Positions 4,120-35,256 are shown, counted from the first letter of the stretch. The stretch is 64,000 bases of DNA from Candidatus Aminicenantales bacterium (GCA_049515535.1 JBEKTZ010000003.1:248001-312000); one strand, 5' to 3'. Notes: generated by a model from the letters alone, not told the origin. Made by a program: numbers and translations.

Positions 4120-6156
4120 CTACTTGACGACTTTCAGCGGCGGCAGAAAATTCTCCATCACCCAGAGCTCGCTCTTGGAACCCTCATCGACGCTGAACGC
4201 AAAGCGGCGGTTGTCCGGGTGAAGCGCGAAGTATTGCAGTTTTGGAACGGAGAGGTCCAGCTTCAGCGGCGTCCCGCCCTGCGCCGGAACCCGCCAGATT
4301 TCACTGCTCGCGGTATTGCGTGCCCGGACAATGATGTAACGGCCGTCCCTCGTCCACCCCAGCCCGTAATACCAGTCAGGGTGCGCCGAACCGCGAAATA
4401 GCTCCCGCGGCTCCCCTCCGTTGAGGGACACGGTCTTTACAGCGCCATTCACCTGGAACACCACTTCCCGGCCGTCCGGCGAGAGGTCGTAAAATATTCC
4501 TGCTTTGACAACTTCCGACTCCTCACCGGTGTCGAGGTTGCGTTTCCTGATGCTTGGCCCCCCTGTCTCCCCCTTCACGAACACCAGGGTCTTCCCATCC
4601 GGGCAGAGCTTGGGGGCAAAGCCTCCATCTGGCAACTTAGTGATCTCGCTTGTTTCAGTGTCAATTCGGAAGATCCCAGTTTCCGTCCCCGTAATCCCGA
4701 GCGCGATGACGGAACGGCCGTCCGGCGCCCAGGAGATCTGGTTAACGAAACGAAGACGCGGCGACAGGAAGCGCTCTTCCCCGGTTGCGGCCGACCGGAT
4801 CGTGAGGATATTGTTTCCAGGACTGACGTCACCCCGACGTGAAATGTAGAGTAAGTTCCTGCCGTCGGGTGACCATGTTGGCTGTGACGGTGGGCCAGTA
4901 TACCGCGTCGTGACCGGCGCGGGTGGCACGAGTACCTTACCGGTTTCAAGGTCGACCTCACCGTAGTAGAGGCGACCTAAAGAGGTGCCAGTCTTGTAAT
5001 AAAGGGAGCCATCGGGTGCAAAGCCAAGAACCTCTGAATCATAGCCGAAGTCCTTTTTCAACAGTTCTGGTTCTCCTTGCTGCTTCCCCCCGGTGATGTG
5101 GACGGTCCAGATGTCCCACGTTCCCGAGCGGTCGCTGAGGAAGACAAGGCTTTTCCCGTCCGGTGTCCATCCAAGCAGTCGATCCTCCGCAGGGTGCCCG
5201 GCAACAACGACCTCATTCCGGCCATCGGCGGTCATCAGGAAGACGTCGCCATGGGGTGGACTACCCTCACGCACGAAACTGAACGCGACAAATCGCCCAT
5301 CGGGCGAGAAACTGGCCCTTTCAAACAAGAACAAGGGCGAAGTAATACTCCTCAGGACGCGCACCGAGCCGTCCGCTGTCGAGATCAGTGTTAGGTCAAT
5401 CCCCCCCTTTGAACTGTAACCAAGCTCGCGAAGTGCGAGGATGGACCTTGCGTCAGGCGACCAGTCCAAGGGTGCGACGTAAGAGTCTTTCTCACTGTAA
5501 AGTGTGCGAAGGCCCGAACCATCCAGGTTTCTAATCCGCACTTGAGGGACCCAGTCCTTCGTATACGAGTTGTATGCGATTTGTTTTCCGTCGCGTGATA
5601 ACGCTTGGTACTCGTAGGACGCCTCAGTCTCGCTCCAGGGCCCCTTATTTTTGATTCGGCTCGTCTGTCCGCCGGCAACTTCGAACTGGACCACGTCACC
5701 CTTTTCCCAATCTATACCTCTGATGAACTTGCCATCCGCGGTCAAGACTCCATCGACACCGGAGGCATCCGCTAGGATCCGGCGGGTGATGAGTCCCCCG
5801 GCGCCGCCGGGGCCGCCCAGTGCCGCCAGCCTCACCCGCGCCTGCGCCACAATCTCGGCCTGGTCGGCGAAGTCGCGCACCACCCGCTCGTAGGCGGCGC
5901 GCGCCTCTGCATTGCCCAATTTTTCATAGCACAGTCCGATATACAGTTGAGATTTCGCCGCATATTCTCTTTCTCCAGGATATTTCTGGATTAGCTCACT
6001 GAAGAGCTTGATGGCTTCATTCAGGTCGCCCTTTGTTTCCATGGCGAATTTCGCTTTTTCGAAAAGCACTTTATGTTCGGGAGAATTTTGAAGGCCAAAA
6101 GCCATCAACGCGGCTGCCAAAACTGCAATTGAGATAATAGTTTTTTTAAAATTCAT
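4120..6156 (-). CDS. Secreted TPR + WD40-like (PD40) beta-propeller protein, paralog P1
   Basis: Signal peptide MNFKKTIISIAVL.. with RBS GGAGG; TPR 'IGLCYEKLGNAEARAAYERVV'; many W/FSPDG repeats; C-terminal 'ELWVMENFLP'. Confidence 0.85.
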   Translation of the reverse strand: MNFKKTIISIAVLAAALMAFGLQNSPEHKVLFEKAKFAMETKGDLNEAIKLFSELIQKYPGEREYAAKSQLYIGLCYEKLGNAEARAAYERVVRDFADQAEIVAQARVRLAALGGPGGAGGLITRRILADASGVDGVLTADGKFIRGIDWEKGDVVQFEVAGGQTSRIKNKGPWSETEASYEYQALSRDGKQIAYNSYTKDWVPQVRIRNLDGSGLRTLYSEKDSYVAPLDWSPDARSILALRELGYSSKGGIDLTLISTADGSVRVLRSITSPLFLFERASFSPDGRFVAFSFVREGSPPHGDVFLMTADGRNEVVVAGHPAEDRLLGWTPDGKSLVFLSDRSGTWDIWTVHITGGKQQGEPELLKKDFGYDSEVLGFAPDGSLYYKTGTSLGRLYYGEVDLETGKVLVPPAPVTTRYTGPPSQPTWSPDGRNLLYISRRGDVSPGNNILTIRSAATGEERFLSPRLRFVNQISWAPDGRSVIALGITGTETGIFRIDTETSEITKLPDGGFAPKLCPDGKTLVFVKGETGGPSIRKRNLDTGEESEVVKAGIFYDLSPDGREVVFQVNGAVKTVSLNGGEPRELFRGSAHPDWYYGLGWTRDGRYIIVRARNTASSEIWRVPAQGGTPLKLDLSVPKLQYFALHPDNRRFAFSVDEGSKSELWVMENFLPPLKVVK

Positions 6157-6194
6157 GATGCTACCTCCTACCGGTGATTTTTCCATTCATCAAC

Positions 6195-33304: not shown

Positions 33305-35256
33305 GTCCTCTTCTCCAACGGCAGCAGGATGGTAAACGTGCTGCCCCGGCCGGGTTTGCTCTCGAGGCGGATCTCGCCGTCATGAGCTTCGATGATGTGG
33401 CGCGCCATGGCCAGGCCGATGCCGGTCCCTTGGATATTGGCTGCCCTGGAGCCGGTCCCACGGACGAATCTCTTGAAGATCTCCTTTTGCTCCGAAGTCG
33501 GAATTCCCATGCCCTGGTCCCGGACACGGATGGCCAGGCGGCCTCGTTCGCGCGCCATCTCGACCCAGACGGTGCGGCAGTCCGGCGAATACTTGACCGC
33601 GTTGTCGAGCAGGTTCCTCAGCGCCAGGCCGAGCGCTTCGCGATCGGCGTGGATGAACGGATACTCCCCGGCGAGCTCCAGTTCGACGTGGTAGCCCTGG
33701 GCAGCCGCCTTCTCCTGGAATTCGGCCACCAGGTCACCCACCAACTTTACGGGATCGAGACGCTCAAAGTGATAGCGGAACGCGCGCGCCTCGATGCGGC
33801 CGAAATCCAGCAGCGACTCGACGAGCCTCTGCAGCCGCTCGCTTTCGCGGGACAGAATGTCATAGGATTTCTGCCGCAGGTCTTCCGTGGGAACCCTCCC
33901 CTTGGACAGCATCTCGGAAAGCTGGCGCAGCGAGGTGAGCGGAGTCCGGAATTCATGCGACACCGCCGAAACGAACTCGGACTGAAGCCTGGCTACGGCA
34001 TGCTCGCGGTCGATGGAGCGCATGATGAAATAAGAGCCGGCCAGAAGGACCAGCGCCAGTACCGCGAAGCCTGAAAGCAGCAGGCGGCGCCGCCCGGCAA
34101 CGCCTGCCTCGTCGACGCCGGGATCGGTACTGCTTGCGTGCAGAGTCCCGGGCAGTCTGGTGGCATCCATCGTCCGTACGGCCTGCGGGCCGTTCTTGTT
34201 GAACGAGCCGATCATAACCTGCCCGTTTGCGTCGACCAAAGCGCCCTGGACTCGTTGGCCATACAAAAGCTCTTTCCACTTCGAAACAAGGTAATTGGGC
34301 CCCGCCAACACAGCGGCCAGCCGATCCGAAGTCCCCGCCCAAGAGACTAGCACGGACTGGCCTTCAATTTTCAGAATCCGGCGCCCTTTCGATTCCGGAT
34401 CGGCAATCCACTGGCCGTATATCGATTCCGCGGCGGTCGAGAGCGCGAGCGCGTTCTGTTCGCGTTCGGATAAGGGACTGGCCCCCAACCAGCGCTGCAC
34501 CTCTTCCACATGGAACTCCCAAACGGGCCGGGGCAAGCTCCAGCGGCCGCTCCAAAGGGCCGCACGCATGAGCGACGCTTCCTTCCGCAGTTCTTCGCGC
34601 TTTCCGATCGCTTCCAGCACGGTGCCGCGCGCTTCGCGCGCCATCAGTTCCGCCGGCAGTCCCAGAACGCAGGTCCGGCCAAGTTGGGCGAGCTCGCCGT
34701 AGACTTGGAGGGCTTCCTCATGGCGACCGGTTTTGCGGAGGTTTCGCCCCAGACGCAGCAAGGCGCCGGCGCGCACCCCGGGATCTGGTGATCGGGCAAG
34801 CTCCCGGAAGACCTCGGCCGCTTTGGCCGGATCGTTGCCCTGGTACTCCAGGGTCTCGCCGGCGACGAAGGTCGCAGCCGGCGGTTCTTCGCCGTCCGGA
34901 ATCACGGGATAGTAGAGCAGGCAACCGGGCGGGTAAGCGTTGACGGTGCGTTTCGTCACCTGCAGGACCAACACGCCGTCCGGCGGTACTTTCGCGCCGG
35001 GGCTTGGGACGAAGCTCAGATAGCTTTCAAGGTCGGTGAGGCTTTGTTGAAGCGCGGCGGCCATGTGGTCCGCCGCCAGTTCCAGGCGTTCCTGCAGGCG
35101 CTGTCCTTCGAGCGCGCGATCCTGTTTCAGTAATTGCCAGCCGAGCCAGCCCAGGGCGCCGCCAAGGACAAGCATGAGACAGAGAAAGACCGCCAGGGTG
35201 CGACCGGGCGGCCGGAGCCAAAGGGCTAATCCCATGGGTTGCCTCGCAAACGGCAT
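33301..35256 (-). CDS. Sensor histidine kinase HK4 with periplasmic TPR domain
   Basis: 'RAGALLRLGRNLRK', 'VSHEFRTPL', 'NLLDNAVKYS', 'GTGIGL'. Confidence 0.93.
   Translation of the reverse strand: MPFARQPMGLALWLRPPGRTLAVFLCLMLVLGGALGWLGWQLLKQDRALEGQRLQERLELAADHMAAALQQSLTDLESYLSFVPSPGAKVPPDGVLVLQVTKRTVNAYPPGCLLYYPVIPDGEEPPAATFVAGETLEYQGNDPAKAAEVFRELARSPDPGVRAGALLRLGRNLRKTGRHEEALQVYGELAQLGRTCVLGLPAELMAREARGTVLEAIGKREELRKEASLMRAALWSGRWSLPRPVWEFHVEEVQRWLGASPLSEREQNALALSTAAESIYGQWIADPESKGRRILKIEGQSVLVSWAGTSDRLAAVLAGPNYLVSKWKELLYGQRVQGALVDANGQVMIGSFNKNGPQAVRTMDATRLPGTLHASSTDPGVDEAGVAGRRRLLLSGFAVLALVLLAGSYFIMRSIDREHAVARLQSEFVSAVSHEFRTPLTSLRQLSEMLSKGRVPTEDLRQKSYDILSRESERLQRLVESLLDFGRIEARAFRYHFERLDPVKLVGDLVAEFQEKAAAQGYHVELELAGEYPFIHADREALGLALRNLLDNAVKYSPDCRTVWVEMARERGRLAIRVRDQGMGIPTSEQKEIFKRFVRGTGSRAANIQGTGIGLAMARHIIEAHDGEIRLESKPGRGSTFTILLPLEKRT

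Follow-up and report, generated by a model that had tools for sequence, protein, structure and literature searches.

Gene content of the propeller array

We analyzed a 64,000-nucleotide (nt) stretch of the genome of a sediment-derived Candidatus Aminicenantales bacterium (GCA_049515535.1, JBEKTZ010000003.1:248001-312000), which we refer to as the window and number from its first letter, and focused on an array of propeller proteins and signal transducers encoded between positions 4120 and 35256. Open reading frame (ORF) listing and Pfam scans of this region gave six intact tetratricopeptide repeat (TPR)/PD40 double-propeller proteins, P1 to P6, and one C-terminal remnant. The initial annotation of this DNA had described six intact propeller proteins of approximately 700 amino acids (aa), each adjacent or fused to its own transducer, in the order histidine kinase (HK)-response regulator (RR)-propeller four times, extracytoplasmic function (ECF) sigma factor/anti-sigma factor-propeller once, and BlaI-BlaR1 fused to a propeller once, and the ORFs and domain matches bore out this gene content and its coordinates. 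All close family members in the 3.45-Mb, 32-contig genome were located inside this one array.

The free propeller proteins (P1, P2, P4, P5, and P6) were 688 to 744 aa long, and each had TPR and PD40 matches in Pfam. HK-RR pairs (HisKA plus HATPase_c; REC plus Trans_reg_C) were found directly upstream of P1, P2, P5, and P6, and we refer to the resulting units, all on the minus strand, as modules M1 to M4. M1 consists of HK1 (6946-9075), with a large periplasmic TPR-like sensor and a TPR_19 match below threshold, the OmpR-family regulator RR1 (6257-6943; Response_reg, 119.9 bits; Trans_reg_C, 93.3 bits), and the exported P1 (4120-6186, 688 aa; PD40, 86.7 bits; TPR_6, 35.6 bits). M2 is made up of HK2 (12803-14788), the sensor of which is 48% identical to that of HK4, RR2 (12123-12806), and P2 (9928-12045, 705 aa; PD40, 89.7 bits), M3 of HK3 (25509-27617), RR3 (24824-25570), and P5 (22536-24746, 736 aa), and M4 of HK4 (33301-35256), RR4 (32630-33304), and P6 (30342-32444, 700 aa). 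The real start of P5 is probably M13, and that of RR3 is likely to lie near 25507, where the tblastn alignment begins. Across the four modules, the kinases scored 51.8 to 72.8 bits for HisKA and 92.7 to 106.1 bits for HATPase_c, and the regulators scored 93.9 to 119.9 bits for Response_reg and 84 to 93.3 bits for Trans_reg_C. The phospho-accepting histidine (H434 in HK4 numbering) was invariant in 49 sequences.

The remaining two propellers are coupled to other transducers. P3 forms the C-terminal half of a 959-aa protein (14898-17777, minus strand) that resembles BlaR1 (MecR1) in its Peptidase_M56 domain (204.3 bits at residues 17 to 330), its HELAH motif, and the BlaI-type (MecI-type) repressor gene upstream (17774-18166, minus strand; Penicillinase_R, 123.8 bits). 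Unlike in BlaR1, however, the penicillin-binding C-terminal sensor domain is replaced by a tandem propeller: the C-terminal 600 aa matched PD40 propellers only, the protein lacks a TPR, the membrane helix runs directly into the propeller, and the NCBIfam model blaR1_generic covered only residues 18 to 356, with 211 bits against a cutoff of 400. P4 (20286-22520, plus strand), a divergent TPR and tandem propeller protein of 744 aa, follows an ECF sigma factor (18626-19225, plus strand; Sigma70_r2 and Sigma70_r4_2; TIGR02937, 95.4 bits with a cutoff of 42.9) and a transmembrane anti-sigma factor with an N-terminal zf-HC2 domain (19229-20218, plus strand; 25.6 bits) and an outer domain of approximately 220 aa. 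The sigma and anti-sigma genes have the domains of an ECF/ZAS pair, and the order ECF-anti-sigma-propeller recurs in the loci L022, L023, L025, L026, and L030 of other genomes. The best ESM Atlas match of the outer domain was a DUF4367 cluster at 0.86, which is a lead only and would point to a domain that is not TPR-like. One contig of run X2 joins position 18530 to position 22567 (31 letters on the shorter side), and the depth of this run was 0 to 4 over the ECF sigma/anti-sigma/P4 block versus 34 to 74 over the neighboring P5; the block (18530-22567) seems to be absent from related populations.

Five of the six intact propellers share a C-terminal strand, E/Q-x-W-V/A-M-E-N-F-L-P (ELWVMENFLP in P1, EVWVIKNLLS in P2, EVWAMENFLP in P3, QVWVMENFLP in P5, and EIWVMENFLP in P6), and P4, which reads SIWEVDVEALL at this position, ends differently; the alignment and translations thus agreed with the strand pattern and the divergence of P4 noted at the outset. 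The pseudogene that had been annotated is present but amounts only to a C-terminal remnant of approximately 110 aa with one in-frame TGA (9488-9820, minus strand; 43% tblastn identity to residues 575 to 688 of P1), which has the motif ELWVMENFLP and a translation ending ELWVMENFLPALKVAK. An RR gene remnant that is absent from the initial annotation (30198-30302, minus strand; 60% tblastn identity over 35 aa) and, just downstream of it, a degenerate copy of the M4 repeat described below, with one mismatch (30134-30163, minus strand), lie directly upstream of a low-GC ORF of 455 aa (28673-30040) that had a weak HYR match only in the domain scan. It looks as if a different gene occupies the former slot of a propeller there.

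Pfam and NCBIfam found no catalytic domain in the propeller proteins, which is in line with the initial annotation; the matches to Peptidase_S9_N and DPPIV_N were to noncatalytic propellers only, no S9/tricorn-type catalytic peptidase domain follows the propeller, and the proteins end right after the last blade. A structure model of P5 (50-sequence alignment; mean pLDDT, 86.3) contained a signal/anchor helix, five helices (residues 43 to 139), and 46 strands between residues 143 and 717, corresponding to approximately twelve blades. Residues 418 to 709 superposed on the six-bladed propeller of TolB (2ojh, Z of 26.9 and root mean square deviation [rmsd] of 2.9 Å over 264 aligned residues; Escherichia coli TolB, Z of 25.4), residues 150 to 416 matched the propellers of S9 peptidases (Z of 19.8), and Foldseek returned tandem propellers, the propeller part of tricorn, and TolB. 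The fold also matched the tandem YWTD propellers of LRP5/6 and megalin, signaling coreceptors that bind ligands through an ectodomain of paired six-bladed propellers (Z of 20 to 22.6 over residues 140 to 697, with an rmsd of approximately 20 Å because the propeller orientations differ). However, the LRP5/6 and megalin propellers are eukaryotic, belong to a different repeat family, and share 8 to 12% identity with the array proteins, and the likeness is an analogy only.

The kinases of the four modules have sensor domains of approximately 350 to 390 aa with a PAS-like part. In the HK3 model (49 sequences; pLDDT, 83.2), the first transmembrane helix and a long stalk are followed by a TPR-like helical repeat domain at residues 154 to 313 and a PAS-like α/β part at residues 324 to 424, and the second transmembrane helix continues directly into the dimerization and histidine phosphotransfer (DHp) helix. 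Residues 147 to 305 aligned to the TPR domains of LGN/Pins (Z of 13.9, rmsd of 4.4 to 4.8 Å, 146 to 149 residues aligned); in the fold search with the full-length model, kinase-core matches filled the list, and only the solenoid (147 to 305) gave TPR matches. All four kinases had subthreshold Pfam TPR matches at equivalent periplasmic positions. The periplasmic TPR domain initially ascribed to all four kinases is consistent with these matches and with the HK3 model, but a Z of 13.9 is borderline for helical repeats and "TPR-like solenoid" is the safer description. Two metatranscriptome runs contained contigs that were 90 to 95% alike over parts of P5 and HK3, and such contigs do not show transcription or operon structure. 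A 68-nt GC-rich element occurs as inverted arms, 96% complementary, at 26487-26554 and 27792-27859 and in at least 41 copies at 88 to 100% identity in this genome. One arm lies in frame within the HK3 sensor, where it corresponds to a low-confidence loop of the model (residues 357 to 378), and contigs from other runs are without a 63-nt insert in HK3 (joint 26487->26551).

Linkage and mosaic history of the modules in other genomes

A scan of species-representative genomes confirmed at least 530 relatives, and the best 68 loci were kept; being the top matches to P5, these loci favor relatives, but they still include proteins of other phyla with 33 to 40% identity. The ORFs in these loci were scored with profiles built from the window's own proteins, which gave 89 full-length propeller ORFs, 13 of them with less than 900 nt upstream. 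Among the other 76, the upstream neighbor was an RR in 64 cases, an anti-sigma factor in 4, and another propeller in 4; two more, in records labelled Porphyromonadaceae and Bacteroides, had the order propeller-HK-RR, and the last two had none of these arrangements. Arrays of two to four modules were common. All 61 full-length kinases in these loci aligned to the window kinase profile from the sensor domain onward, and the window's unrelated kinase (53875-56115) matched the kinase core only (tblastn).

The same linkage was found from the side of the kinase. In 18 regions around matches to the HK4 sensor in 12 other genomes of the phylum, 19 of the 21 HK-RR pairs with room downstream were followed by a propeller, several of them as split ORFs, and the exceptions were in L096 and L102. 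Several modules of the phylum (in L091, L093, and L098, from genomes G280 and G055) had kinase or propeller genes split into two to five ORFs, a sign of module decay or of frameshifts in the assembly. Seen from either side, propeller and transducer are linked throughout the family, as the initial annotation had anticipated for the gene neighborhood.

A protein search returned more than 3,600 homologues at E ≤ 1e-10, and records with the family were labelled Aminicenantes, Terriglobia, Vicinamibacterales, Gemmatimonadales, Bacteroidota, and Phycisphaerales. Longer homologues numbered 138 at E ≤ 1e-20. Among the 120 of these that were listed, 47 carried M56 with two or three propeller cassettes, 4 carried a protein kinase domain, and many consisted of a TPR and two cassettes; HisKA or HATPase was found in none of the 120.

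The components of a module did not share one history. In a whole-tree mirror comparison, HK and RR distances were strongly correlated (r of 0.95), and the correlation between HK and the whole propeller protein was low (r of 0.24). Because of this low value, the propeller protein was split into its TPR and its propellers, and pairwise distances were compared in 47 modules (49 triples minus those with 5'-open or overextended kinase ORFs, plus the four window modules). The Spearman correlations were 0.74 for sensor and regulator, 0.50 for TPR and sensor, and 0.47 for TPR and regulator, compared with 0.12 for propellers and sensor and 0.14 for propellers and their own TPR. The congruence of HK, RR, and propeller trees envisaged at the outset thus held for HK and RR, held in part for the TPR, and failed for the propellers.

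Individual pairs of modules behaved accordingly. M4 and the module of L088 were 63% identical in the sensor, 84% in the kinase core, 84% in the RR, and 67% in the TPR, with 42% in the propellers, and M1 and L026_13105 shared 48, 74, 78, 57, and 38% identity in the same five parts. M3 and L023_8097 showed the opposite distribution, with 21% in the sensor, 46% in the kinase core, 52% in the RR, 51% in the TPR, and 73% in the propellers. Sliding-window identity changed in a step at the linker between TPR and propellers, dropping from 72 to 85% to 26 to 40% for P5 versus L045 and climbing to 90% for P5 versus L026_7899. The GC content differed within modules as well (M1: 0.46 for RR1 and 0.43 for HK1 versus 0.57 for P1; M3: 0.63 for RR3 and 0.65 for HK3 versus 0.55 for P5). 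The HK and RR of L088, a record labelled Bryobacterales, share 72 and 84% identity with HK4 and RR4, which suggests transfer between classes. The paralogues in the window share about 35% identity and, by this divergence, are old. Expansion by duplication, as first proposed for the array, is too simple an account, given the age of the paralogues, the different histories of TPR and propellers, and the GC differences within modules. Judged from these sequence comparisons, the propeller pair behaves as an exchangeable cassette with a history separate from that of the TPR and kinase.

Upstream repeats, predicted docking, and flanking genes

The gap between RR and propeller genes had a median length of 90 nt (49 triples), and direct repeats specific to the individual module, all on the minus strand, were found upstream of propeller genes and HK operons in the window. 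In M1, the AT-rich 70-nt region between RR1 and P1 (6187-6256) contains TTAC(A)/TGACA repeats and has three 8-mers in common with the region upstream of HK1 (approximately 9076-9175), which has repeated TGACA/TTACA words. Upstream of P2 there is a TGACA-N6-TGACA direct repeat (12103-12118), a word with three exact matches in the window versus 0.02 expected. M3 has CTTGAC/CTTGTC repeats with an 11-nt phase upstream of P5 (24773-24800) and three repeats of the type CTTGACCGAAT, also with an 11-nt phase, upstream of HK3 (27662-27689); the CTTGAC-type words occurred five times in the window versus 0.43 expected, and four of the five were at these two sites. M4 has a TCCTGAC-N16-TCCTGAC repeat upstream of P6 (32482-32511) and a ATCCTGAC-N14-ATCCTGAC repeat upstream of HK4 (35283-35312). 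In the whole 3.45-Mb genome, TCCTGAC-N12-18-TCCTGAC had three sites, compared with none for the control, and two of these were the sites upstream of HK4 and P6. The third site (C4) lies inside a 552-aa reading frame and was taken as a chance match.

In a set of 34 modules, cognate upstream regions shared at least three 8-mers in 17, compared with 14.8% of 1,100 noncognate pairs, and the mean number of shared 8-mers was 2.9 for cognate and 1.0 for noncognate pairs. From the phase of the repeats and what is known of the OmpR family, we infer that the repeats are binding sites of OmpR-type regulators, and the earlier proposal that the propellers are induced by their cognate transducers fits module-specific repeats that precede the propeller gene as well as the HK operon. 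Exact TGACA-N6-TKACA repeats were also present at 37400-37415, upstream of a protein with Exo_endo_phos and Omp85 domains (37479-39659), and at 56849-56864, right behind the regulator of an unrelated two-component system (53875-56806) and before an aminotransferase gene. Consensus scans gave 10 promoter-like sites versus 7.5 ± 3.1 in one half and 13 versus 5.2 ± 2.5 in the other, and 18 versus 20.0 and 19 versus 17.9 terminator-like sites in the two halves. The stretch between RR4 and P6 contains one GC-rich hairpin (32613-32594) as well as a promoter-like site (32472-32443).

The initial annotation had proposed that the propeller proteins dock on their cognate transducers by TPR-TPR contacts, and a complex model supported this for the pair HK4/P6. 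One pair was modelled, consisting of the HK4 sensor (residues 60 to 388) and P6 (residues 30 to 700) with their own alignments. The interface score ipSAE was 0.75, 0.74, and 0.74, compared with 0.00 for the best of three controls; in a reference set, 116 of 157 solved complexes but just 2 of 215 mismatched pairs attained this mark. The runs agreed in at least 97% of contacts, with a partner pLDDT of at least 77. In the predicted interface, periplasmic residues 134 to 251 of HK4, in the solenoid, form a socket for residues 30 to 48 and 82 to 84 of P6, that is, for its first helix and first TPR turn, and the propellers themselves lie outside it. No sequence-similar solved complex was found in the PDB, where the best sequence matches were designed repeat proteins and YbgF/CpoB at E ≥ 0.09.

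Several residues at the predicted interface were strongly conserved, and its rim was variable. On the kinase side, E137 and R171 were present in 49 of 49 sequences, F138 in 45 of 49, and K175 in 44 of 49, and E137 and R171 were two of only three invariant sensor columns in the 49 modules. On the partner side, conservation was 48/48 for G46, 47/48 for L48, 48/49 for K82, 48/49 for L83, and 49/49 for G84. P4 lacks G46, L48, K82, and L83 in the alignment of the six propeller proteins, and the BlaR1 fusion lacks the TPR altogether, which fits a TPR that connects the free propeller to the kinase. Interprotein covariation was calculated for 49 paired modules. Out of 18,494 variable column pairs, kinase position 208 and partner position 40 formed the top covarying pair, both with raw values (0.81) and after average product correction (APC), and the same pair was the second-best predicted contact, with an expected error of 1.3 Å. 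The states of this pair were chemically matched and included charge swaps (L-Y in 19 modules, F-F in 6, H-Q in 4, R-E in 4, E-K in 3, and G-A in 3); the four window modules have E-K, Q-K, A-H, and F-F. Four of the 14 testable contact pairs were at or above the 95th APC percentile.

An AbiEi/AbiEii pair adjoins the array (2670-3933; 198 and 270 bits in PADLOC), and PADLOC gave no defense family for the propellers, the BlaR1 fusion, or the neighboring ORFs. At 43095-51858, two large TPR-CHAT proteins of 964 and 1,030 aa flank a low-GC stretch (0.32 to 0.39) in which a sigma-70 region 2 protein and a GT2 glycosyltransferase are encoded.

Proposed three-component signaling, alternatives, and precedents

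We consider it probable, though by no means certain, that each HK-RR-propeller unit is a three-component signaling module in which the propeller protein is docked on its own kinase. In such a module, the exported third protein, which carries two six-bladed TolB-type propellers behind a short N-terminal TPR region, would insert its first helix and first TPR motif into the TPR-like solenoid of the kinase periplasmic domain. A conserved anchor (kinase E137, F138, R171, and K175; partner G46, L48, and K82-L83-G84) and a variable rim with one or more specificity pairs, among them kinase 208 and partner 40, would together commit each propeller protein to its cognate kinase. The propellers may bind an extracytoplasmic protein or peptide-like ligand, or a client, and their occupancy would alter the output of the kinase, with the propeller protein acting as a coreceptor or as a titratable inhibitor. 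The OmpR-type regulator would act on the direct repeats upstream of its own operon and of the propeller gene, and, since it would act on the latter too, the partner would serve as an input element and, at the same time, as the main local output. The propeller pair would recombine at the linker between TPR and propellers; elsewhere it is joined directly to BlaR1-type proteases and to Ser/Thr kinases, and the window has the cassette fused to BlaR1 in P3 and placed behind the ECF sigma/anti-sigma pair in P4. Of this account, the gene content, the conserved linkage, the mosaic history, and the repeats are observations, whereas binding, induction, and ligand sensing are inferred.

A number of observations weigh against this interpretation. 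The docking of P6 on HK4 is predicted, and the score supports it without demonstrating it, being the confidence of a predictor and not a measurement. Both alignments given to the predictor had the same module row order, so that contact and covariation are not independent if the rows were paired. The entropy of the partner interface was not below that of the rest of the TPR (1.47 versus 1.52; P = 0.53), only 1 of the 14 testable contact pairs was an extreme outlier (mean percentile, 72 raw and 68 with APC), one pair was at the 1.5th percentile, and the covarying states cluster by clade, so that few independent changes are represented. The TPR tracked the cytoplasmic regulator about as well as it tracked the sensor, which points to coinheritance and not to contact, and an HK4-type sensor was present in 13 of 301 sampled genomes of the phylum, including the window's own. 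As for regulation, the M3 word was not enriched genome-wide (9 matches versus 18 for the control), M2 and four other modules had no 8-mers shared between their two upstream regions, and the TTGACA-like words could be -35 promoter boxes. Finally, the propeller could be purely an output if the regulon consists of the module itself only.

It is also conceivable, but in our view unlikely, that the propeller is a mere regulated product with a role in periplasmic binding, scavenging, or chaperoning, that the kinase senses alone, and that adjacency reflects regulation. The kinase has its own sensor domain with a PAS-like part, the propeller gene and the kinase operon are preceded by matching direct repeats, and the genome contains no further intergenic copy of the M4 word, so that the chief output may be the propeller; a TGACA-N6-TGACA repeat also follows the regulator of the second two-component system in the window, ahead of an unrelated gene. 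However, a mere product is difficult to reconcile with the predicted docking (0.74 versus 0.00 for controls), with invariant sensor residues within the predicted interface, and with a top covarying pair that is a predicted contact. Moreover, BlaR1-type proteases and Ser/Thr kinases carry the same cassette at their extracytoplasmic end, a position that leaves no room for a role as output only.

Two further explanations concern the function of the propellers themselves. The proteins might be envelope-structural relatives of the Tol-Pal system, with a TolB-like propeller and a CpoB/YbgF-like TPR, in which case the signaling neighborhood would be no sign of a partnership. The second propeller does superpose on TolB (Z of 25 to 27, rmsd of 2.6 to 3.0 Å, 251 to 264 aligned residues, 19 to 24% identity), the PD40 repeat motif is common to both, and homologues are named "Tol biopolymer transport system component" in databases. 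However, the P5 scores for TIGR02800 (TolB; 154.6 bits, propeller part only) and TIGR02795 (YbgF; 31.3 bits) were far below the cutoffs of 343.15 and 90 bits, the proteins have two propellers and a TPR and lack the TolB N-terminal domain, and no propeller is located beside tol-pal genes in the window. The array also holds six of these propellers, every one of them next to a transducer, and a regulator precedes 64 of 76 homologues; we regard this explanation as very improbable. A slightly better case, still with only a slim chance, can be made for a diversifying repertoire of periplasmic decoys or immunity proteins, in which the kinase detects an invader, such as a bacteriocin or a phage component that uses TolB-like receptors, and induces a propeller that sequesters it. 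Cassettes exchanged independently of TPR and kinase, the GC mosaic of the array, the ECF/anti-sigma/P4 block that appears to be missing in related populations, an adjoining AbiEi/AbiEii pair, and a detectable M4 regulon consisting of the module itself all speak for such a repertoire, and TolB propellers are, according to PDB entry titles, solved binding sites of colicin peptides. On the other hand, the propellers and the BlaR1 fusion matched no PADLOC family, nothing ties the modules to phage or bacteriocin genes, and sensors of nutrients or stress could just as well be expected to have exchangeable cassettes.

The three-component reading has parallels among known accessory proteins of two-component systems. 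ExoR is built of Sel1-type repeats, and its gene is not known to be linked to that of its kinase; CpxP and ZraP are small helical proteins that are induced by their own systems and feed back on the kinase. By comparison with these proteins and with MtrAB-LpqB, the layout of the array has precedents. The literature describes MtrAB-LpqB as a proposed three-component system, in which LpqB, a lipoprotein with GerMN domains and one β-propeller, is nearly always encoded adjacent to mtrAB (PMC2732212), is reported to bind the extracellular domain of MtrB (PMC12757749), and is reported to modulate signaling (PMC2732212 and PMC12757749, citing Hoskisson and Hutchings, 2006, and Nguyen et al., 2010). 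In PMC3460628, ExoR is described as repressing ChvG by physical interaction in the periplasm and as being degraded on an acid signal. CpxP, working with the kinase CpxA (PMC4160245), and ZraP of the ZraPSR system (PMC12314577) are described as accessory periplasmic proteins, and QseG is a further accessory protein. The initial statement that no system with this layout has been described was therefore overstated, as MtrAB-LpqB and ExoR-ChvG/ChvI show. For the HK-RR-TPR/PD40 module itself, no description was found in the literature searched, in which PMC1262709 and PMC3174227 held nothing relevant on PD40, TolB, or propellers.

The family differs from the LpqB, ExoR, and CpxP/QseG systems in domain makeup, gene order, multiplicity, and cassette exchange. 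Like LpqB, the array proteins are exported β-propeller proteins encoded beside a two-component system; P2, and only P2, reached the LpqB-propeller model Gmad1 (20.8 bits versus a cutoff of 20.5), and NCBI lists a long homologue under the name "LpqB family beta-propeller domain-containing protein." Unlike LpqB, they have a TPR and two propellers without a GerMN match or a lipobox cysteine, the gene order is HK-RR-propeller instead of RR-HK-lpqB, several paralogous modules occur per genome, and the cassette is also combined with BlaR1, Ser/Thr kinases, and ECF/anti-sigma pairs. ExoR-ExoS(ChvG)/ChvI is the closest precedent for a helical-repeat module that docks on a kinase periplasmic domain, but ExoR has no propeller. 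CpxP-CpxAR and ZraP-ZraSR share with the array an accessory periplasmic protein encoded beside the two-component system, whereas the partner here has approximately 700 aa, a TPR, and two propellers and gave no CpxP/Spy/ZraP-type Pfam match.

A more far-reaching possibility, which we regard as speculative and unlikely, is that the modules form a plug-and-socket sensor system. The TPR would be a conserved plug with a specificity residue, a dedicated kinase family would provide the matching socket, and recombination would swap double-propeller cassettes among lineages and even across classes of transducer (histidine kinase, BlaR1 protease, Ser/Thr kinase, and anti-sigma factor). As no regulon beyond the module itself is detectable, the propeller would then be both receptor and effector, and the array would be an inducible, diversifying periplasmic capture or decoy repertoire, not a conventional nutrient or stress sensor.

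Kinase accessory proteins are few and come mostly from model Proteobacteria and Actinobacteria, and the proteins described here form a large, widespread, and uncharacterized family, for which a concrete interface is predicted and one candidate specificity pair can be named. Should the docking prove true, the three-component modules would be a second, far more diversified example of the MtrAB-LpqB logic. They would also account for the abundance of "TolB-like" proteins in these phyla and, with their plug, socket, and exchangeable propeller, would offer a modular scaffold for the study or engineering of new sensor inputs to kinases.

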